DNA of 63,855 bases from Heptranchias perlo (Eukaryota), in assembly GCF_035084215.1 (NCBI RefSeq), contig NC_090356.1:17732001-17795855 (forward strand), given 5' to 3'. Within the stretch, counting starts at the first letter, position 1. Each line of letters opens with the position of its first letter. Shown in pieces: positions 3,381 to 63,855 of the stretch. The translations under genes were made by a program, and so were the position numbers. The notes under the pieces were generated by a model, which searched no databases, had not been told where the DNA came from, and was given only the letters and a program-made list of their open reading frames with translations.

Positions 3381-5732
3381 TCACATTAATTTGCCTCAGC
3401 CCCAATCTCAGAAAAGTGTCCTCTAATGCACCAGTGTGACGATTTCTAGTTCCTACATTCGTCATCACGTGAGGTTGCCCATTAGTGCTCAATTAGGTTC
3501 AGTTTTGTGTTGTGGGCCCATATCTAGGATTGGGTTGAGAGGGTGTAGGACCCTTACAGCCAGCAGCAAACAGAGTGGGCTTTCAGCCTGTAAGCCTGGG
3601 TTGGTTTTGAACCCAAGTGCCAGAGATGAAAGAATTTTGTCCTTCCGTGTAAGGAGTTGCTATTACTGTTCAGGGATTTTGCTCACTAAACAATGGGATG
3701 AGTTCCACAGAGTAATAAACAGATTAGAATTATTGAATGTATTTCAGTTACCAAAATTATACATGAAGAGAAATGACACAGATAAAAGCAGAACTTGTCA
3801 CTGTATTGGTGCAACATCACTGCTGCACATTTAACCGCTGAGTGACAGGAATCTGCAGATTGCAGCAAGCCCAGAGGGTCCTTTCATAGTAGTAGTATGA
3901 TACAGCCATTCGGCCCATCGTGCCTATGCCGGCTTTTTGAAAGAGCTATCCAGTTAGTCCCACAGCCCTGCTATAGTTTCACAACAGTCAAATTGTAAAA
4001 TGAATAAATCTATTCCACTTATCAAAGTTAATTTTTTTGAATTTAGTACAAAATTGTACTCAACTTAATCATTCACTGAACAGGAATTCAAATATGTCTT
4101 TTTTTTCATTTACTGAAGGTGCTGATTTTTCTGTTGACCAAGTGACAAATCGTCAAATGTGAGCCTGGACAATGAGCGGCAATAGGCCATTTGACTACAA
4201 GAGGACACAACAGCGGAATCCAATCCTCTCCTCACCCAAAAAGCACACCCCATACTTTCGAGCTGCAGTCACTGATTGGTGATCAGGCGTGGGAACCCTG
4301 CTGATTTCTTGCCCTCATCCCAGGGCTCTGAGACTAACTATAGCACACCTACTGACATCCCCGTTAGATCAGCTAACTCAGAACGTGGGGCCTGCCTGTG
4401 AGTATAAATAGTGGGGGTAATTTTCAACTCCACCGCCTGGGCAGCAACCTGGTGGAGCGGGTTCCTCACCCATTGTAAAACCCGCGCAATGTTCATTCCA
4501 TTGGTTCCATGGAACTAAAATCAGACCGTTTCTACAACAAGGAGTGACCTGCTCTTCTAAGTTAACGTAGTTTACTAACACGGTACTGATGGAGTCCAAA
4601 ATCTGAGTGTTTTTTTTTTAAACTCACAAACAGTTAAATTATTACTTTCTATAGAATCAATCCGTGATTTTCAGATTCGATTACCTTCTTGAAGCCCATC
4701 GGTCTTTACAGCCACAACGGGGGCTCCGCATTCACCGTCGGCGTGGAATAAGATTAAAATAAAATCAGATCAGTTAAGCCTTCTTCGGTTAGCTCTGGTT
4801 TCTTTGTAACCTATTACAAATAAACTTATGTAAGCGCCAAGTCTTTGACATGTGAGCAGAACCGGATTGAGAATTATTGGGGCTGTAGTTACTGCCGTTC
4901 ACTAAGAGGGGGGAAATGAGCCAGGGATCCCTTACCTGACCACTGGAGAATGACTTCTGCTGGAAAATGTGCATATGTAGGGGTTGGATGAGGTCAGGAT
5001 TGGGCGCAGTTGTGACGCCCCTCCCAGTTGAATACCCTGCTGGAACTCACCGGCTAGATTCACGTATGAAGAATAGTTTTTCGTCGAGGTACTAGAGACT
5101 AGTAGCTTTTGATACCTGACTCCGGTGTGAGTCTGCACTGTCAGAGGAGGGGAAAATCTAGCGAAAAAAGCAAGCAGTGAGATGGGAAAGTGAAGAGACT
5201 TTACCTTTGGTTGAGAAAATTACTTGATTCTTCTTCGCTTGGAACCTTGACAATGCTGAATGATTTCTCCTTGAAAACGCATCAATATATTTCCAGATTA
5301 ATTGAATTAAATCGTTTACTGAGGTTGAGGAATGCGGTAGAGATTCCTCCAGTTAGAACGTCGTATAATCCAGAATCACTGTCAATATAAGGAATCACCA
5401 GCCTTGCAGCGCCGTGTAACTGGAACACATTTTTACATTCTGCTACACCCCATCTGGCTTTATTCCTAAAACCTACTTACAGTGGGCGGTGCTCAGAGTT
5501 ATTTTGTGACAGATGTAACAAGTCTGATAGAGTCCTTGGTATTACCAATCCCTGATGTGATAGCCCCCTCCCCTCAGGGCTGTGTACAACCTGAATGGAT
5601 TTGTCAAAGGAGAACGGATAATTAAAAGTGGATCAAAAGCAAAATACTGGGGATGCTGGAAATCTGAAATAAAAGCAGAAAATGCTGGAGGAGCTCAGCA
5701 AGTCAGGCAGCATCTGTGGAGAAAGGAACAGC

Positions 5733-5768
5733 GTTAACGTTTCAGGTCGAAGACCTTTCGTCAGAACT
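5733..5768 (-). ncRNA. Minimal type I hammerhead ribozyme, inverted copy
   Basis: Reverse complement of the 7216-7252 motif with an identical core. Stem I is one pair shorter. Confidence 0.7.
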
Positions 5769-6334
5769 GGAAGATGTTAAACGAGTTAAAGTTTTTGAGC
5801 AAGTACAGAGCCAGGGAAAGGGAGGGAGGGGGGAGGAAAGAACAAAAGGGAAGGTCTGTGATAGGGTAGAGGGCAGGAGTGATTAAATGACAAAAGGGAT
5901 GATGGTGCAAGGCAAGGAAGGTGGTGATGGGACAGGTTAAGAAACAAAAGATTGGTCAGGAGTAGCTATAAGTGGCAGCAGCAGAACCATTACCAGCACT
6001 AGCTGACCGAAAAAATGGGAGCAGTGGTTATGATCTGAAGTTACTGAAATCAATGTTGAGTCCGGAAGTTGTAAAGTGCCTAAACAAAAGATGAGGTGCT
6101 GTTCCTCGAGCTTACATTGAGTTTCATTGGAACAGTGTAAGAGGCAGAGGACAGAGAGGTCAGAGTGGGAGCGGGAAGGGGAATTAAAATAGCAAGAGAC
6201 CGGCAGGTCAGGGTCACACTTGCGGACAGGGCTGACATGTTCAGCAAAGCGACTACCCAGTCTGCGTTTGATCTCCCCAATGTAGAGGAGACCGCATTGT
6301 GTGCAGCGGATACAGTATACTAAATTGAAAGAAG

Positions 6335-6957
6335 ATAGGGTCCTCCTTTGTCCTCACCTTCCACCACACCAGCCTCCACATTCAATGTATCATCCTCCAC
6401 CATTTCCGCCACCTCCAGCGCGATCCCACCACCAAACACATCTTCCCCTCCCCCCTTTCAGCATTCCGAAGGGACCGCTCTCTGCCACACCCTGGTCCAC
6501 TCTTCCATCACCCCCCAACACCCGCTCTCATCCCCACAGCACCTTCCTGTGCGAGTGCAGGAGATGCAACACCTGCCCCTTCACCTCTTCCCTTCCCACC
6601 GTCCAGGGCCCCAAACACTCCTTCCAGGTGAAACAGCAGTTTACTTGTACTTCTTTCAATTTAGTATACTGTATCCACTGCACACAATGCGGTCTCCTCT
6701 ACATTGGCGAGACCAAACGCAGATTGGGTGGTCGCTTTGCTGAACACCTCCGCTCTGTCTGCAAGCATGACCCTGACCTGCCGGTCGTTTGCCATTTTAA
6801 TTCCCTTTCCCACTCCCACTCTGACCTCTCTGCCCTCAGCCTCTCACACTGTTCCAATGAAGATCAATGGAGGCTCGAGGAACAGCACCTCATCTTTCAT
6901 TTAGGCACTTTACAACCTTCTGGACTCAACATTGATTTCAATAACTTCAGATTATAA
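6335..6957 (+). pseudogene. PLE C-terminal fragment with Cys-rich linker and GIY-YIG endonuclease
   Basis: CRRCNTC...FTCTSFNLVYCIHCTQCGLLYIGETKRRLGGRFAEH...HFN...EQHLIFHLGTLQPSGLN is a canonical Penelope endonuclease. No start codon or RT domain. Confidence 0.9.
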
Positions 6958-7215
6958 CCACTGCTCCCATTTTTTCGGTCAGCCAGTGCTGGTAATGGTT
7001 CTGCTGCTGCCATTTACAGCTACTCCTGATCAACCTTTTGTTTCTTAACCTGTCCCATCACCACCCTCCTTGCCTTGCACCATCATCCCTTTTTCATTTA
7101 ATCACTCCTGTCCTCCTCCCTATCACAGACCTTCCCTTTTGTTCTTTCCTCCCCCCTCCCTCCCTTTCCCTGGCTCTGTACTTGCTCAAAAACTTTAACT
7201 CTTTTAACATCTTCC

Positions 7216-7252
7216 AGTTCTGACGAAAGGTCTTCGACCTGAAACGTTAACT
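7216..7252 (+). ncRNA. Minimal type I hammerhead ribozyme in PLE terminal repeat
   Basis: agtt-CTGACGA-a-AGGTC-ttc-GACCT-GAA-ACGT-t-aact: conserved core, 5-bp stem II, palindromic helix III, 4-bp stem I. Confidence 0.75.
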
Positions 7253-8039
7253 CTGTTTCTTTCTCCACAGATGCTGCCTGACTTGCTGAGCTTCTCCAGC
7301 ATTTTCTGTTTTAATTAAAAGTGGAACAGCTGCAAGGAGCGGAAACGCGCCCTGGAGGAAATATAAGGTCCGGGAGCAGTCCTGATCCTCGCCGTTGGAA
7401 TGTGCACTAGAGCCGTCTGCTTTGATATCAGCTCCCGCCCTAATCCTCACCACCGCCTTAATGCGGCCTTCGTCTACATGTGATCCATAAAATTAATGGC
7501 TTTAAAATCTCTCAATTTGATCTTACAGGAAGAATCGCTGTTTAACGACTGATGTGGTTTGTTACATTGTTTTCCGACAAAAAAAAGCTACAGTGATACT
7601 GACTGGCCTGAGATGTGAATTCACTGAGAGCCGAGTCATCTTGATGCATTGTGCGGAGTTCACAGTTGGGGGCGGGGACACATTCTAGCCTAGCGAGAAC
7701 GCCAGAAAACGCTGCTGGAATCGTGAAGTTCCTTTTTAAATAACGTTTTGTGTTTAGCAAGTTAGTTAATGCTGAGTAATGGAAACATTTTCCATTTCAG
7801 GTACACCAGCATCAAGTATCCCCAGGACAAGTAAAGCAGGAGTTAGATACAGAGTAAAGCTCCCTCTGCACTGCCCCATCAAGCACTTCCAGGTCAGGTA
7901 CTTGGTGTTGTCCCTATGGGGCCCAGTCTGCCTGTTTAGGTAGATGTTAATGATCCCTTGGTACTGTTTTGAAGAAGAGCAAGGAGTTGTCCTGGACAAC
8001 ATTCCTTCCTCAGTCAAAACAGATTAACTGGTCATTCAA

Positions 8040-17251: not shown

Positions 17252-17361
17252 TTTGACAAACTTTCCGTGCAAGAGATATGGAGACTGGAAATCATTCTGG
17301 CAGTTAGCATAGGCCATTCCTATACCCATTCCTGCACCAAAAGTAATAGGCCATATGCGCC
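17252..17361 (-). CDS. MICOS10: MICOS10 coding exon 3, (R)[36 protein letters not shown]
   Basis: 110-nt exon with tttcttgtgtttag| acceptor and |GTGAGT donor. Completes the KRR loop and encodes the second GxGxGxG helix and the typical [15 protein letters not shown] tail. Confidence 0.97.
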
Positions 17362-17877
17362 CTAAACACAAGAAAAAATAACATTAGGCTAAATGTAAAT
17401 ACCTAGAACATGGAATTGGTTAAATATATTTTTTACAATCTACTTAACTCTGAATTTCTACAACTGATTCATTTGATTTTTGTTTGATACCCTCTCCCTG
17501 CCTCTTCTGAAGGCACAGACTTGAGCTGGCATTTGGTTCCATAGCCACACTCAGCCATTGCGCACCTCACTCAAATCACCATTCTTCATGTACGCGTTTA
17601 GACAGTGAGTGTCAGTACGCTATTCAACCAGGGGGAGCAACATAGCCCAGCCTGATTCTTACCTCACACGGCATTAATTTGCTAGCAGGGGTTACTGGAT
17701 AGTGTCAGCACTTCCCACAATATTGCTGAGTCATCCATTAGGAAGCACAACAGCAGTCTCAGAATGACCCCAGCCTCCAGTCTATATGCTCCCCGAATTT
17801 TCCTTCTCTCCATTACGACACTCACAATCATTTACTGTTCCATATATGCTCCATAAACAGTAAATAACAATACTTAC

Positions 17878-17925
17878 GCTTAAAAGCGATGACAGAAAGT
17901 ACAATTCCTAAGCCAAGGCCAGCAC
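17878..17925 (-). CDS. MICOS10: MICOS10 coding exon 2, (G)AGLGLGIVLSVIAFK-R
   Basis: 48-nt exon with ttctcag| acceptor and |GTAAGT donor, phase 1 to phase 1. Encodes the first GxGxGxG transmembrane helix of Mic10. Confidence 0.96.
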
Positions 17926-25867: not shown

Positions 25868-26046
25868 GCACATGTGCATACCAGCGCGCGAGAGGGAAGG
25901 CGAGTGATTGGGAGAGATCGAATAGACAGTGGCATGACAGACAGTTCAACAACTTGCATGCCGCTGTCTATTCGATCTCTCCCAATCACTCGCCTTCCCT
26001 CTCGCGCGCTGGTATGCACATGTGCATAAATGCAAGTTGTTGAACT
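25868..26046. repeat. 69-bp inverted repeat with an interleaved 17-bp inverted repeat
   Basis: 25868-25936 pairs with 25957-26025 (one mismatch). 25943-25959 pairs with 26030-26046. Confidence 0.93.
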
Positions 26047-26600: not shown

Positions 26601-28594
26601 CGAAGAAGCAAAAGCGGTGATGTTTACACCACATTCTTTTGTTCACTAGTTTAACAGTCATTAACCCAGGAGTTTGACACAAACGCATTAACCAGCATGT
26701 TAAATAGTGCATGAAGATATTTCATCTACTAGGTTAGAGGGCTGATGAGAGTGCTTACCCCATTAAATCTGCCACTTCCCTACAACATGGTTTTAAAATA
26801 AATAGATAGTACAAATGGATTTGGACCTCAATTTAATCAGGCTCAGCTGGACCAAATTTCCATGCCAAACTCTGCCAAGTGTAGTTAAAAGAAAAACTGC
26901 AGCTTCAGAACAGAGCACCAGATACAACGATCAAGTCAACAAAAAAAATGGGTCAGTAAAAAAGTGACCAGTGACATGTTTGAGATAAGCACTCTACCTC
27001 CCCCTCTCACTCACTTACACTGACTCTGGTGCAGTTTTATTTACATGATTAATCTTTTTTTCTTTCTTTCCAAAGATTGGCTTTCATGTAGGTATGGCAG
27101 ACTCAGAATATTACCAACAATATCCAATCTAATTGTTTCTTTCTAATGGAAATGTTGACATACATTTCCCTTACTCAGCTTACCCTGCAATCAATGCCAA
27201 TTTAATTAAAATTGACCAACAGCATGACTGGCATACTTGGGTTATCATTCAACACCTGAACACAAACCTTCAGGCACAGGCTATAAACTGAACATGCTAA
27301 CCATCATGCTACCTCAATACCGTGAATAGCATACAGCTCAAACGATGCACTGCATCTTGAGGAATATTTTTGATGCCCAATTCTAATCATAGAATGACCT
27401 GGCTTTCATTGAAACTTTTGACCCATTTTACTGCATAAAGTTGCCAGATAGTTCTTGGGATTTAAATTGTTTTTATAATTTGATACTGATTGATGGAAAC
27501 AAGTATCGCATTAAATTAAATAGTACACGAGCAATTAGCCGGGCCAATGTAAAAGTGGTTTCAAAATGGAACAGAAGTCTTATTGTGCTCCAAAACATTA
27601 ATGTCATTGAGTGCTCCCACAATATCTATTATTTATGAAGTGCACTATTGGTAGTTCTGTGCTGTGGATCAGATTCTATTGGGATGAGATGGAGGATGCC
27701 AAAACTCATTTAAAGTGTGACCTTCATAACCCTTCAGTAAGAGGTGACCTTCATTATCCATTCCCAGGCTGAATTTGAGCTTGCTGCTTCAGACTAACAT
27801 TATGCTCATTAAAATACCGTGATAAATATCAAATTGAGTGCTCCAATTTAGGAGCTTAACAGTAAAGCACACAACCTTAAAGGCAAATTTCTTTTCTACA
27901 CATTGTACATTAATATTTCAACTGAGATACAATAGACAGGAATTCCTACTGATCTCTTTAAAGACAAGAAACTATTTCTCTGAATGGAAAGGCTGATGGT
28001 GTAATAAAGGTAATCATGCTAAAACCAATCCAGCAGTCCTTTTGTATTCAGCCATATAGATAGATAGAGAGTACATTGTCATGCTGTGTCTGCCTTTGTG
28101 TTGCAATTTGCAATGAGAATTCAGCTAATAGGGTTTCAGTAAATGCAAACAGACTGCTTTATTTCCATATTTATTTGGTACTTGTTTTTAAAATGTGAAA
28201 CCGCCATCTGTATAAAATTACTAGAAGTGCAGCGACCTATATAGGGTATCAGATTACACAAACACTACCAACCCTAGCTTCCAACAGAAGTCCTTTTCTC
28301 TCGAGGTAGGTTTCGCTCTCCCTTGCCCCTTCAATTTCTCGCCCATTTTTCTTTGTCTGCCTGGTCTGTCATTCTTCTTGTAATCAGACTGGCAATGCCA
28401 TCGGTAACTGGTCAGAGGCCAGGAACCACCCTGGCATGGCTGCTGTCTGATTTTCCTCCTCCCTTCCAGGGAGATGCCAGTCCACGCATTCAACTTGGCT
28501 CAGATTAGAAAGTCAAACCTACATCCATTCCCACTTCATGATAATTGTAAACAATTTTACAACACCAAGTTATAGTCCAGCAATTTTATTTTAA

Positions 28595-28635
28595 ATTCAC
28601 AAGCTTTCGGAGGCTTCCTCCTTCCTCAGGTGAAT
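28595..28635 (-). ncRNA. Minimal type I hammerhead ribozyme, sense to the MICOS10 pre-mRNA
   Basis: Exact reverse-complement copy of 28651-28691. Confidence 0.8.
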
Positions 28636-28650
28636 GTGGAAAATTTCCAC

Positions 28651-28691
28651 ATTCACCTGAGGAAGGAGGAAGCCTCCGAAAGCTTGTGAAT
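28651..28691 (+). ncRNA. Minimal type I hammerhead ribozyme
   Basis: ATTCAC-CTGAGGA-a-GGAGG-aag-CCTCC-GAA-AGCT-t-GTGAAT: perfect 6-bp stem I, 5-bp stem II, palindromic helix III. Confidence 0.8.
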
Positions 28692-29164
28692 TTCAAATAA
28701 AATTGCTGGACTATAACTTGGTGTTGTAAAATTGTTTACAATTGTCAACCCCAGTCCATCACCGGCATCTCCATATCAGCACTTCATGATATGCACAGAG
28801 CTAAAGTGCCACTTCTTTGACTTCAATTGCTACTACCTCCACAGCAGACCCAATTTGCCAACAGGTGGCAGTTAACTACAATTATACAGTAAAGAAAGAT
28901 TTTTTTTTAAAGATCATCTAGAATTCACAAGGCTGAAGTTAAATTCCCAAGTACATTTTTAATTCAGCCAATTGTCTTAATGTCGTCATGCAGAACACTT
29001 TGCAAAATGATTTGTGAGTATACCCAACCAATGAATGGGATGAAAATCTCCCTTCTCTGGTGGCAATAAAATCTGGTGTTCAGTCTCACTTGGTATGGAA
29101 AACTTACACATTACTCGGGTGTCACCTCTTCTGAGATTAGCATAATATAAGCAAGCACCATTCA

Positions 29165-29523
29165 GAGGGCTTGGCAAGGTAGATGTTGAGAGGATGTTTC
29201 TCCTGGCTGAAGAGTCTAGAACTAGGGGACATAGTCTCAGGATAAGGAGTCGGCCATTTAGCACTGAGAGGAGGACAACAAATTTCTTCACTCAAGAGGG
29301 TCGTGAATCTTTGCAATTCTCTTCTCCAGAGTGCTGTGGATGCTCAGTCCTCGAGTATAGTCAAGACTGAGATCGATAGATTTCTTGGATTCTAAGGGAA
29401 TCAAGGGATATGGGGACCGGGCAGGAAAGTGGAGTTGAGGTCGAAGATCAGCCATGATCTTATTGAATGGTGGAGCAGGCTCGACGGGCGGTATGGCTTA
29501 CTCCTGCTCCTATTTCTCATGTT
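29165..29523 (+). mobile_element. CR1 LINE 3' end
   Basis: SRTRGHSLRIR-like coding remnant and gatcagccatgatcttattgaatgg 3'UTR. Confidence 0.88.
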
Positions 29524-32500
29524 CAGCCCCTCACCCATCCTATATCTGACCTTGCACTGATTGATGCTGGCACTGGCTGCAAAAAATGTGAAATATTCCA
29601 TTCCCCGCAGTACTGACAGACATCCCTGAGCAATTACCAGCAAAATTAAAAGCTAAATAGAATACAGTTACTTTTATAAAAGAAAAGAAACTCTGCAGGG
29701 TGTGGAAGCTGGATAGAATGGAGTTTGCAGTTTCTACCAGCGTTAATAGGATGGTCAGAGAAAATAAGGAAGTTATTTATCACTCGTAATAAATATACAT
29801 AAGCACACAGAATATCTAAAAAGTTGCATTTATATAGCACTTTAAGTTGAAACGTCTCCATGCACTTCACACAATTACTTTTGAAGTACACTTACTTATG
29901 TAGAGAAATATGACAAGCCATCCTGTGCCAGCGAAGTCCCACATAGAAGGATGAGGTTAGTGACCTGTTAATGTCTGGTTTTGGTGCTAGTGCTTGAGGG
30001 GGTAAGTATTGCCCGGGACACCGTAGAATTAACACACAAAAACAAGCGGTAGAGGGAAATTAATCCTCCGTTTAACTTCTCATCTAAAGGACAACTCCAA
30101 CAATAAAACATTCTCTCAGCATGGCACTAGGGTGTCAACTTCGATTGCAAGCTGAAATCCACAATCTTTTGACCCAGAGGCGAGAGTGCTACCAATTATT
30201 TATTTAACGCATGCCGACTCAGTGAATAATTCCAGCCATCTTGGGGCATTGTTATCCCACCAATGGAGGCATGCTGACACGCAGAGCAGCTTTGGCAGGA
30301 GTTGGCAGTAGAGCAGGAGATCTAACATGAGAAAAAAAGAACAAAATGTATTAAATGGTGTGGAACTACAAAATATTCAAACCAGAGGGGGAGATAAATA
30401 GTGAATGGAATTATAGGAATAGTTCCTGAATAAAGAAATAAACAAACATCAACGTGAACAGTAAAGGACTCTCACTATTCATATTTCTGGTAATTTGTCA
30501 AATGTGCCTGAGAGAATGTCCTAATTAAAAGGAACATCCTGGGTATCTGGCCTCAGTCCAAGAGCAGCAAATTTGTTCTTCACCTTTACATTGCAGCTAA
30601 GTGTCATACAGGGCTTGAAGCGACACGAGTCACTCCACTTACTATTACAAGGGGAATCTTCCTTTGTTCCTTTGAGTCCGGACATTAGAATCGACCAAAG
30701 TAATTTGATTTCAAGCCTTTGAAGAAAAACAAAATTAGGACATTTTCCCTACATATAGTTCCATAAATACAAAGCTCAGTAAGCCTATCAATGTGATGCT
30801 GAGCTGTGAAAGACTAAGATTTCATTTAAGCAATTTTACAATGTTGAAATCGGTCAAGAAAATCCTCACCAACAACTGTATATCTATACATTGCGTCACA
30901 CTGTCTTTTTGCCACTTTTTCTCTCTCCCTTCCCTGAAGGTGGTGACTCGTACTGGGGTACAGTTCCACAGGTACCGAGTGCCCTCTACTGCTTCATCCA
31001 AGTGGCCGTTATTCTTAAATGAGCCTCGACAGTGAGATGAGAGGCTTTTCAACAATGGTTCATGATTCTGAACCCAATCCTGTCATCTACACAAGTGCAC
31101 TATCTACCTGGGGTCATTGTATTGCCATCAGGAGTAGTATAAAGATTATTGTATACATGTGAACTAAAAAGGTACCTAGTAATTTTTAATTATATATTTC
31201 ATTCTTCCAGAACTGGCTATGTTTGGAGACAGTATTTCTGTGTTCGAGTGAAGTACATGAGCAATTTATGATAAATTATCACACACAAAGTACATTACCA
31301 CATTAAAAAGAAATGACAAGTATAGTTTTTCCTGAAGTCTGTTACTACTGATACATAAAATGAGACTAGTGACAACTGGGTCAATGTACTCAGCCATACA
31401 AACCAGAAGGTCCCAAGCTTGACTTCCAGTCTGTGCAGTTAACTGATTTCAGCCAAGACACCAAGGGAGGGGCAGAGCAGGCTATAATTGGCCTCAAAGA
31501 AAAAAAAATCACTTATAACTCTTGCTCCCGATTACAAATCAATGTGCCCTGCTGGGTGAGGACAGGACCAAGTTCAAACGTGGAGGGTATCACACCCAAA
31601 GACTGCTCATATTTGGCTCACACATGAAGATGGGGATGGTACTGGAGGGCTGCTAGCACCTAATGAACCACACCCCAGCACGAATCAACACTTTCAGGAG
31701 AAGAAAATTGGGGAAAAAGTAATTTAAAACTTTTATAAAGCTATGTACTGCATAATGCAAATTTCCTCCACCTCCCAACACCCACCCATGCGATCTAGAA
31801 ATCTGTTTCCAAGTCTCTGATTATTTTTGTACCAGCTGTAAACCACATTGACAAACATAATTAACTAAATATAAGTTACATTTCTAAATGTCATCCAACA
31901 AAGCTCGAAACTAAAACAACAAGCTGACACAGCATGAATGCCGTCATAATAGTTCTCTTTAAAATTAGTAGGAGCTGTTACTGGTGTAGTATAATACTTT
32001 GGTTACAGCTTCACTCTCAACGATACACAACACACACCCTGTTATTTGGCTCATGTGATTTTAAAGAGAGAAAGATTATTCTTACCTCCCTTTGTAGCTC
32101 AAAAAGACAATTTACTATAAATATTTAATAATAATAATCTTTGTTTGCAAGTAAAGGCATTTCATTAGAGTAGATTCACACAGCTGAACTCGAGCAAGAA
32201 AATCCTTACTAAGTACAGTATATTCATTAGCTGCCACTGACTGACACACAGTCTTGTTGCCAATTCCTCTCCTCCATTCCTGAAGGTGGATTCCTGCTGG
32301 GGGAGTTCCACGCGTACGTTCCATATCTCACTCAAATGGCCATTATTCACGTGAGCCAAACTTTAAGTATCGGCAAGCTATTCAACAGTGGAGATCATTA
32401 CAATGAACCCAATCTAGTACTCATCTGATATCCTCACATGCATACTTTCCAATATACATAAAGATAGATAGATATCAGGAACGTTAAGTTGATACTTACC

Positions 32501-33512: not shown

Positions 33513-33806
33513 ACTGAAATTACTTCGTTTTTTTTTAAAAACCAAATCAGACTTACTGATGTTGAATTCTATCTACCACCTTTTTGCTCATTCCACCCTC
33601 TTCTCAATATCTTCTTACAGCTTCCGTTGGTTCTCAAAATTATTTACTATGTCTCCTATTTTAGTATCAAGTGCAAATTTGGACACCACTCTCTCTATCC
33701 CTATATCCAAATCATCGATAAAGAAAACAAGGCTTCACTTATGCATCATCTTGCTCCCTTTTTATAAATACTTACTTTTTGTGTTAAATCTAAATAATGT
33801 CATAAG

Positions 33807-34440
33807 AACATAAGAAATAGGCGCAGGAGTAGGCCAATCGGCCCTTCGAGCCTGCTCCGCCATTCAATAAGATCATGGCTGATCTGATCCTAACCTCAAA
33901 TCTAAATTCATGTCCAATTTCCTGCCCGCTCCCCGTAACCCCTAATTCCCTTTACTTCTAGGAAACTGTCTATTTCTGTTTTAAATTTATTTAATGATGT
34001 AGCTTCCACAGCTTCCTGGGGCAGCAAATTCCACAGACCTACTACCCTCTGAGTGAAGAAGTTTCTCCTCATCTCAGTTTTGAAAGAGCAGCCCCTTATT
34101 CTAAGATTATGCCCCCTAGTTCTAGTTTCACCCATCCTTGGGAACATCCTTACCGCATCCACCCGATCAAGCCCCTTCACAACCTTATATGTTTCAATAA
34201 GATCGCCTCTCATTCTTCTGAACTCCAATGAGTAGAGTCCCAATCCACTCAACCTCTCCTCATATGTCTGCCCCCTCATCCCCGGGATTAACCGAGTGAA
34301 CCTTCTTTGTACTGCCTCGAGAGCAAGTATGTCTTTTCTTAAGTATGGAGACCAAAACTGTATGCAGTATTCCAGGTGCGGTCTCACCAATACCTTATAT
34401 AACTGCAGCAATACCTCCCTGTTTTTATATTCTATCCCCT
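33807..34440 (-). mobile_element. CR1 LINE 3' fragment, same young subfamily as 62180-63516
   Basis: ORF 33908-34411 (LYKVLVRPHLEYC...RRNFFTQRVV) and its 3'UTR are almost identical to about 62880-63516. Confidence 0.95.
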
Positions 34441-38524: not shown

Positions 38525-38588
38525 CTAATTTCACCACCGTATCCGCCAAGCACCGTTCCACCTTCTTGCCGACTTCGGCCTCCGCCAT
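38525..38588 (-). CDS. MICOS10: MICOS10 (Mic10/MINOS1) coding exon 1, MAEAEVGKKVERCLADTVVKL-G
   Basis: ATG in strong Kozak context (aagATGG). 64 nt followed by a G|GTAAAT donor. Peptide resembles the vertebrate Mic10 N-terminus (MSESELGRKWDRCLADAVVKIG). Lies in a CpG-rich promoter. Confidence 0.95.
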
Positions 38589-56048: not shown

Positions 56049-56258
56049 AAAAGCAAAATACTGAAAATCTGAAACAAAAACAGAAAATGCTGGAAATACA
56101 CAGCAGGTCAGTCAGGATTTGTGGTGAGAACAGAAGTTTACAATTCAGGTGTGGACCCTTCAGAACACAAGGGTCTGCACCAAAAATGTAAACTTGTATG
56201 TTATTTGCATGAATGCTGACTGACTTGTGTGTTTCTAGCATTTTCTGTTTTTATTTCA
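56049..56258. mobile_element. Old degenerate fold-back PLE-terminus element
   Basis: Starts aaagcaaaatactg...aaatctgaaa...cagaaaatgctgga like 5633-5700 and ends in its inverted complement (ctagcattttctgtttttatttca). Similar decayed copies at about 37812-37966 and 40380-40490. Confidence 0.7.
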
Positions 56259-62179: not shown

Positions 62180-63516
62180 TTTGGATAAACATAATTTAAT
62201 AGGACAAAGTCAGCATGGCTTTACGAAGGGGAAGTCATACCTGACAAATTTGCTTGAGTTCTTTGAGGACATAACGTACAGGGTGGATAAAGGGGAACCA
62301 GTGGACGTCGTGTATTTAGACTTCCAGAAGGCATTCGACAAGGTGCCACATAAAAGATTATTGCTCAAGATAAAGAATCACTGGATTGGGGGTAATATTC
62401 TGGCATGGGTGGAGGATTGGTTATCTAACAGGAAGCAGAGAGTTGGGATAAATGGTTCATTCTCAGACTGGCAACCAGTAGCCAGTGGTGTTCCGCAGGG
62501 GTCGGTGCTGGGTCCCCAACTCTTTTACAATCTATATTAACGATTTGGAGGAGGGGACCGAGTGTAACATCAAAATTTGCAGATGATACAAAGATCGGAG
62601 GGAAAGTAGAGAGTGAGGAGGACATAAAAAACCTACAAGGGATATAGACAGGCTGGGTGAGTGGGCGGAGATTTGGCAGATGCAATACAATATTGGAAAA
62701 TGTGAGGTTATGCACTTTGGCAGGAAAAATCAGAGAGCAAGTTATTATCTTAATGGCGAGAAACTGGAAAGTACTGCAGTACAAAGCAATCTGGGGGTCC
62801 TAGTGCAAGAAAATCAAAAAGTTAGTATGCAGGTGCAGCAGGTGATCAAGAAGGCCAACGGAATGTTGGCTTTTATTGCTAGGGGGATAGAATATAAAAA
62901 CAGGGAGGTATTGCTGCAGTTATATAAGGTATTGGTGAGACCGCACCTGGAATACTGCATACAGTTTTGGTGTCCATACTTAAGAAAAGACATACTTGCT
63001 CTCGAGGCAGTACAAAGAAGGTTCACTCGGTTAATCCCGGGGATGAGGGGCAGACATATGAGGAGAGGTCGAGTAGATTGAGACTCTACTTACTGGAGTT
63101 CAGAAGAATGAGAGGCGATCTTATTGAAACATATAAGATTGTGAAGGGGCTTGATCGGGTGGATGCGGTAAGGATGTTCCCAAGGATGGATGAAACTAGA
63201 ACGAGGGGGCATAATCTTAGAATAAGGGGCTGCTCTTTCAAAACTGAGATGAGGAGAAACTTCTTCACTCAGAGGGTGGTAGGTCTGTGGAATTTGCTAC
63301 CCCAGGAAGCTGTGGAAGCTACATCATTAAATAAATTTAAAACAGAAATAGACAGTTTCCTAGAAGTAAAGGGAATTAGGGGTTACAGGGAGTGGGCAGG
63401 AAATTGGACATGAATTTAGATTTGAGGTTAGGATCAGATCAGCCATGATCTTATTGAATGGCGGAGCAGGCTCGAGGGGCCGATTGGCCTACTCCTGCTC
63501 CTATTTCTTATGTTCT
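62180..63516 (+). mobile_element. CR1 LINE, 5'-truncated, RT region plus 3'UTR, young but frameshifted
   Basis: SQHGFTKGKS, VYLDFQKAFDKVPH, SGVPQGSVLGP, FADDTK and LVRPHLEYC motifs. CR1 3' end ...ggcctactcctgctcctatttcttatgttctta. Confidence 0.95.
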
Positions 63517-63682
63517 TAATAAAGGCTCTGTTTGGTCAAGAATCCCAACAGGAGTAAATTTCCTCCTTTTTAAAGGGAATGGTACAATGTTTTGGAAGTA
63601 AATTGTCCATGTCTGAACTATGCACGCTAGGAAGATCCAGTTTCGAGCTCCAGTCTGTGTGAAATTAGCTAATCTCAGTTTG

Positions 63683-63822
63683 ATGTGGAGATGCCGGTGA
63701 TGGACTGGGGTGGACAAATGTAAGGAATCTTACAACACCAGGTTATAGTCCAACAGTTTTTTCAACAGGATTTTCAAATAAAACTGTTGGACTATAACCT
63801 GGTGTTGTAAGATTCCTTACAT
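63683..63822. mobile_element. Shorter member of the same palindromic family, opposite orientation, lacking the ribozyme
   Basis: 44-bp inverted arms (63717-63760 and 63780-63823), same tail (ccccagtccatcaccggcatctcc on minus), 13-bp TSD TAATCTCAGTTTG at 63670-63682 and 63823-63835. Inserted into a SINE head. Confidence 0.85.
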
Positions 63823-63855
63823 TAATCTCAGTTTGGGTAGCCGTAGGAGTAATAC

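Follow-up and report, generated by a model that had tools for sequence, protein, structure and literature searches.

The DNA analysed here, called the window, is a stretch of 63,855 nucleotides of the shark Heptranchias perlo. The MICOS10 gene lies on its minus strand and was recognised by a PF04418 match at 17288-17365. A palindromic insert was found between exon 2 and a stretch with a GT donor, which we take, from its motif, to be coding exon 1 (Table 1). The two flanking exons thus place the insert in intron 1 of MICOS10, as the first-pass annotation had stated, and the locus itself is ordinary.

The insert measures 236 bp between two exact copies of a 12-bp target duplication (TSD). Its palindrome has arms of 104 nt at 28539-28642 and 28644-28747, which are 98% complementary, with mismatches at 28592/28694 and 28542/28744. 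Between 28543 and 28743 the palindrome measures 201 bp and includes a single mismatch; counted by the full arms it reaches 209 bp. The tail has no mirror copy elsewhere in the palindrome. Arm alignment and the exact repeat bore out the near-perfect palindrome, the one-sided tail and the 12-bp TSD described earlier, and the complete minimal hammerhead claimed for each arm was found with its core motif at 28657 (+) and 28629 (-). Among the repeats in 27500-29800 one inverted pair was present and no tandem head-to-tail copy.

Table 1. Features of the insert and of the surrounding MICOS10 intron (window coordinates; signed positions are relative to hammerhead C3)
Feature	Position	Strand	Remark
MICOS10 exon 2	17878..17925	-	lower boundary of intron 1
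MICOS10 coding exon 1, presumed	38525..38588	-	GT donor; upper boundary of intron 1
Left TSD, CACTTCATGATA	28532..28543		last 5 nt match arm at 4/5 positions
Tail-less inverted pLTR arm	28544..28642	-	-13 to +85
Minimal type I hammerhead	28595..28635	-	sense in MICOS10 pre-mRNA; cleavage predicted at 28601/28600
Unpaired centre base	28643	+	A of parent initiator-like TTCA(+1)TTT, 27 nt below parent TATAAAT (parent upstream sequence from L002)
Tailed pLTR arm	28643..28778	+	-14 to +121; ends on A of parent start codon
Minimal type I hammerhead	28651..28691	+	core from 28657; stem I 28651-56/28686-91; stem II 28665-77; helix III palindromic (AGCU); cleavage predicted at 28685/28686
PLE tail, 36 nt, one arm only	28743..28778	+	30-40-bp tail known from the available text of PMC8557442
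Single extra G	28779	+	neither in parent (T there) nor in TSD
Right TSD	28780..28791		exact repeat of left

Several other repeats were observed in the window. A second Penelope-like element (PLE) family of the same architecture occupies 5619-7325, with a 14-bp direct repeat (5619-5632 / 7312-7325), arms of 668 bp that are 93% alike, two hammerheads, 5764 (-) and 7220 (+), whose stem II differs completely, and endonuclease remnants 32-38% identical to the protein of L163, a full-length copy described below. An older relative of the insert's own family lies in reverse orientation at about 63669-63836 with a 13-bp direct repeat; it is without ribozyme because its arms join downstream of the hammerhead. 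A decayed 74% palindrome at 56070-56258 has ends resembling the second PLE family. The 158-bp palindrome at 25868-26025 (92% complementary) is GC-rich, unrelated and without hammerhead motif, and a 637-bp repeat occurs twice (33803-34439 / 62883-63518), the two copies facing opposite ways at a distance of 29 kb with 97.5% identity.

Parent element and architecture of the copies

The genome-wide copy count proposed in the first-pass annotation revealed an abundant family. The exact 29-mer of the ribozyme core gave 13,367 genome matches, compared to 0 for the control, and many of the core copies extend upstream into an ORF. The full-length unit is about 3.02 kb and runs from a hammerhead through about 90 nt, the tail, an ATG, a 902-aa ORF and a 3'UTR to the next hammerhead. 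Units of this kind about 3.02 kb apart, as partial tandems with direct pLTRs, were found at six loci (L151, L152, L153, L157, L160, L163). Intact copies of the 902-aa ORF are present, for example L163:3140-5845, in which RVT_1 scored 34.8 bits, above its cut-off, and a GIY-YIG domain at the C terminus scored 21.2 bits (E 3.7e-4), just below the cut-off of 22.6. Homologues of the ORF carry PF00078 and some also PF01541; the nearest named ones are shark proteins at 80-94%, followed by turtles at about 44%, and a comparison of the ORF with solved structures gave zero matches. The CxxxxCxxC motif which precedes EN in the parent ORF fits the description in the available part of PMC8557442, and this linker motif suggests that the parent may be of Neptune/Nematis type. 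Pieces of the PLE ORF were also seen inside annotated shark host-gene isoforms (P0018, P0062, P0093 and P0097; epn2, NOXP20-like, XRCC5 and septin 5a), either by exonisation or as an annotation artefact.

The insert is the equivalent of the parent sequence upstream of the ATG, and its tailed arm is 99.3% identical (135/136) to the ends of the long copies L002, L096 and L282. Judged by this sequence match, the insert is the hammerhead-bearing end (pLTR) of a young, abundant EN+ PLE encoding RT and GIY-YIG. The identity, the one-sided tail and the TSD support the earlier suggestion of an extreme product of PLE integration, and the insert is almost certainly a PLE insertion product. It consists of two head-to-head copies of the hammerhead-bearing end between the 12-bp target duplications.

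The same architecture was found in the other copies, whose loci are a mixed sample drawn from searches ranked by similarity or ordered by position. A tailed arm faced a tail-less one in 100 of 115 pairs; 4 pairs had two tailed arms, 4 had two tail-less arms and 7 were of other kinds. In the young pairs the tail-less arm ended at +82 to +88 in 70/86 and the tailed arm at +119 to +122 in 79/86, the query itself stopping at +122. A TSD was present in 82/86 young pairs, 11-14 bp long in 70, with the mode at 12 bp (37/86). The TSDs are 71% AT, against 54% in the flanks. The target edges are roughly dyad-symmetric, with C at -1 in 36/62 and G at +1 in 39/62. The way the TSD is defined introduces some bias into these base counts; in this target matrix the loss of A at -1 and of T at +1 is partly an artefact of how the TSD is defined.

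Palindrome centres ranged from 0 to about 5 kb across copies, and the 44 mini centres together with further rows have many different lengths and sequences. The earlier proposal of a young non-autonomous ribozyme family did not hold against this range. A discrete palindromic element, retrozyme- or MITE-like and propagating as a unit, is very improbable and largely refuted: length, centre and ends are not shared across copies, contrary to a MITE/SINE-like family, the locus has no tandem head-to-tail monomer array, and the stub has no TATA box. Such an element would agree with the non-autonomous PLE derivatives known from the accessible part of bioRxiv 10.64898/2026.07.22.740005 and with the recurrence of some centres, one 12-nt centre being seen by eye in 10 of 100 rows listed. 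This recurrent centre, however, is a 2-nt microhomology join in which either arm is longer and the outer ends differ.

Long insertions gave information on how the two arms are related. Forty-two were examined, of which 41 had both arms of at least 40 nt; two of the lengths are bounded by the reference. The tail arm was longer in 16, the tail-less arm in 17, and 8 pairs were within 20 nt. Arm lengths correlate (rho 0.56, p 1.5e-4), and the 8 equal-arm pairs compare with 1.2 expected, a number matched by 0 of 20,000 shuffles. The downstream haplotype agreed between the arms in 79/80 pairs, where random expectation is 40% discordance. The upstream subfamily type differed between the arms in 9/46 pairs, about half of them convincingly, and some long arm pairs are only 92-95% identical. 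These two observations indicate that two templates went into some insertions. Recombination at the site of ribozyme cleavage was considered and rejected as too thin (about 4-5 convincing discordances in 46 upstream, 1 in 80 downstream).

Two further observations concern individual loci. At L188, L018, L023 and L233 the arms differ in subfamily upstream of the ribozyme and agree downstream, for which two templates or a template switch are possible. Kilobase palindromes with arms of 1-2.2 kb, 95-99% alike, stand in the assembly at L099:1134-5048, L094, L113, L268 and L277.

The haplotype common to both arms (79/80 pairs) and the equal arms in 8/41 long pairs can also be explained by single priming followed by fold-back or self-priming, which would make the mirror arm from one cDNA. 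A version with an antisense template is proposed in the available text of PMC3846280, and small hairpins do occur at some centres. The other architectural data speak against fold-back. The tail-less arm is longer in 17/41 pairs, with sequence missing from the other arm; a tail cannot come from copying a tail-less cDNA; both outer ends are fixed and the TSDs are clean; and the two arms of some pairs carry different subfamily sequence. Because either arm can be longer and yet one is tailed, two first-strand cDNAs fit the data and a folded-back single cDNA does not. Fold-back is accordingly regarded as quite improbable.

Short arms and the predicted start site

In the position-ordered sample 93/131 arms end within 40 nt of C3. 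In most long copies TATAAAT lies 38-48 nt upstream of C3, some subfamilies having a variant of it, and the position of the short-arm ends was compared with that of the TATA box. In the subfamily with TATA at -39, a group in which a small number of related variants and one local triplication are counted, 33/53 arms stop at -8 to -10, which is TATA+29 to +31. For the -47/-48 subfamily (30 arms), 16 arms read through, and the stops lie at -16 to -19 in 6/14 and at -8 to -10 in 2/14. The shift of the stop with the TATA box between the two subfamilies gave a Fisher p of 1.2e-4. A reading by eye of 100 rows listed for the -47 subfamily found 52 reading through and 48 stops, of which 4 were at -8 to -10, 13 at -11 to -14, 23 at -16 to -19, 2 at -20/-21, none at -22 to -26 and 6 at -27 to -34.

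The window's own subfamily showed short arms in 18 of 100 listed (by eye, with a pattern that favours long copies), and 4/30 computed stops at -12 to -15. The short-arm share by eye is thus about 18/100 here against 48/100 in the -47 subfamily, under patterns that differ in bias. The window stop corresponds to TATA+27/28, 2-3 nt short of the +29 to +31 mode elsewhere. From the motifs and stop positions, A28643 is inferred to be the predicted 5' end of the transcript. The earlier alternative of randomly truncated PLE ends was partly sustained, as the centres do vary, and partly not, as the short arms gather at a point specific to the subfamily, about 30 nt below a TATA box.

The pile-up may have another cause than the transcript start. 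A twin-primed PLE product whose arm ends are set by RT pausing or by U-rich microhomology would account for the ATTT(C/T)C motif at the stop, common to five subfamilies, for the T-run expansions at centres and for the secondary stops at -11 to -14. A G of the kind that a cap would leave stands before the -18 stop in 22/52 rows by eye, but many of these come from the opposite arm, and compared with plain flank the excess is zero. The -39 subfamily, however, has no ATTT(C/T)C and yet keeps the same TATA distance, and by eye 0/48 stops fall at -22 to -26, where the second ATTTC repeat begins. The upstream hairpin that could block RT was likewise not found, no stable structure being seen 5' of the stop (z -1.3 to 0.8). 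Pausing or microhomology as the determinant of the arm ends is therefore considered unlikely. A splice acceptor as the cause of the stops was also tried and rejected, AG being absent before them.

On the tail side 14/61 minis reach the ORF ATG, and therefore their template ran from the pLTR into the ORF. The minis probably represent run-off copies, without promoter, of the 5' end of a transcript whose start site is predicted from the sequence. Since the TATA box is absent, the stub was likely dead on arrival.

Ribozyme core and predicted folding

Both hammerheads share the core CTGAGGA-A-GGAGG-AAG-CCTCC-GAA-AGCT-T. An Rfam search of the insert returned zero hammerhead families at E<=10 and only sub-threshold miRNA-like hairpin matches. 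Across 297 arms the hammerhead core is 98-100% conserved, and the neighbouring positions are also at about 95-100%, the family being young. Variation sits at N7 (90%), in loop II and at stem I -3, where C gives way to a U wobble. Across subfamilies stem II has compensatory variants (GGAGA/TCTCC and GGGG/CCCC), and the second family has its own, AGGTC/GACCT.

The half element alone folds with stems I and II at -32.2 kcal/mol (z -1.95), and the whole insert forms a hairpin of -185.4 kcal/mol (z -29 against 200 shuffles). In the dimer cofold two copies join through an AAGCUU helix III, and A14 also pairs U17. The antisense arm is transcribed first in the MICOS10 pre-mRNA. In the pre-mRNA fold the long hairpin pairs C3 with a probability of 0.99998, and the stem II probability falls to about 1e-17. 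The long hairpin is predicted to bury the ribozyme in the host pre-mRNA, and by this model cleavage of MICOS10 RNA is unlikely. The first-pass annotation had proposed that the hairpin could switch cleavage off; a blocked ribozyme agrees with the prediction, and no sign of a regulated switch was seen. Among the sequencing runs listed for the insert none was of RNA, and four contig runs from one sample matched the repeat without reaching the intron on either side.

The intact core and the predicted 100-bp pre-mRNA hairpin could point to a role of this copy in MICOS10 expression, as a ribozyme switch or as a dsRNA signal, whatever its origin. The vanishing stem II in the pre-mRNA and the additional A14 pairing in the dimer fold stand against this, as does the report, in the available part of PMC4209133, that the min-HHRs of PLEs show no activity as monomers and little as dimers. 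The intact core reflects youth, because the copy is 99% identical to the family ends. A role of this kind in MICOS10 is very doubtful. The family also implies long hairpins, thousands of them, in the introns of shark pre-mRNAs.

Integration mechanism and known systems

In L1 twin priming both target strands prime, giving an inversion with TSD and a microhomology join; it inverts a non-overlapping part of the element, whereas in the shark family one and the same stretch would be copied into both cDNAs, primed at two fixed sites. The insert was probably made by twin priming, both copies running off at the predicted start site. A dimeric RT-endonuclease would nick both target strands about 12 bp apart. 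One 3'-OH would prime at about +121, at the tail end and the ORF ATG, and the other at about +85, a two-site step which agrees with the in vitro data on a lizard PLE. For a transcript beginning about 30 nt below TATA, priming on its 5' pLTR would give cDNAs that end after 100-135 nt; if the downstream pLTR were primed instead, long palindromes would result. The cDNA ends would then be joined and one arm trimmed. Junctions with 0-6 nt microhomology or a few added bases are seen in the copies, and the joining enzymes are inferred.

The general reading is that PLEs integrate by obligate asymmetric twin TPRT and that the shark hammerhead palindromes are leader run-offs marking TATA-driven starts; a probability of about 0.55 is given to it. 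If it is true, two fixed RNA priming sites 35 nt apart explain the tail, the inverted pLTR and the TSD together, and the centres map the start site of each subfamily within a few bases. The second stop group of the -47 subfamily at -11 to -14 counts against the twin-priming reading. A model with one RNA for both arms has against it the 9/46 pairs differing upstream and the window arms, which differ at +37 as the sole discordant pair at that position among 86 young pairs. The TATA-less internal promoter of D. virilis Penelope, given in the available text of PMC2377424, counts against a TATA-driven start.

The EN+ PLE insertions described in the accessible parts of PMC3846280 and PMC8557442 resemble the insert in their head-to-head inverted pLTR, one-sided tail of 30-40 bp (PMC8557442) and short TSD. 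They resemble the shark family in the TATA and initiator-like motifs of the pLTR, noted for Pen2a_Av in PMC3846280, and in a tail reaching the ORF start. Unlike them, the window insert has no body and both its arms stop at the predicted start site. As to mechanism, self-priming on an antisense template is proposed in PMC3846280, and PMC8557442, in the text available, attributes tandem and inverted structures to still undefined features of the life cycle.

The Poseidon protein PAc of Anolis (PMC11167929, in the part available), a predicted dimer, cuts both strands and extends them; its RT has two start sites, which delimit the tail, and ribozyme cleavage is unnecessary. Likeness to the shark family extends to a hammerhead upstream of the start sites and an AT-rich target. 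The PAc ORF starts inside the hammerhead, whereas the shark ORF begins at +121, and for PAc in vitro the two strands showed no start-site difference, whereas the shark genomic pairs are asymmetric. That part of the paper offers no model of how inverted arms or run-off minis come about, and the titles and opening lines of abstracts in the open literature state neither twin priming nor run-off minis for PLEs. A young family with intact ORFs, two fixed start sites and, for each subfamily, a predicted transcript start gives sharp predictions for in vitro work with a system such as that of PMC11167929.

The minimal PLE hammerheads of Cervera and de la Pena 2014 (PMC4209133) share with the shark ribozyme the extra base between A9 and G10.1, the G10.1-C11.1 pair, the palindromic 15.2-16.2 and the dimer design, and opposite-strand dual motifs 100-700 bp apart were already noted there. 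The text available does not mention the shark family, in which helix II is 5 bp, unlike in those hammerheads. The non-LTR retrozymes of bioRxiv 10.64898/2026.07.22.740005, by the portion accessible, are likewise non-coding, hammerhead-bearing and pLTR-derived; they are head-to-tail tandem units, whereas the window insert is one inverted pair with a TSD. The inverted pLTR, tail and TSD are thus already published for PLEs in the available texts of PMC8557442 and PMC3846280, and the copies add the arm asymmetry, the finding that either arm can be longer, the correlation of arm lengths and the 12-bp TSD peak.
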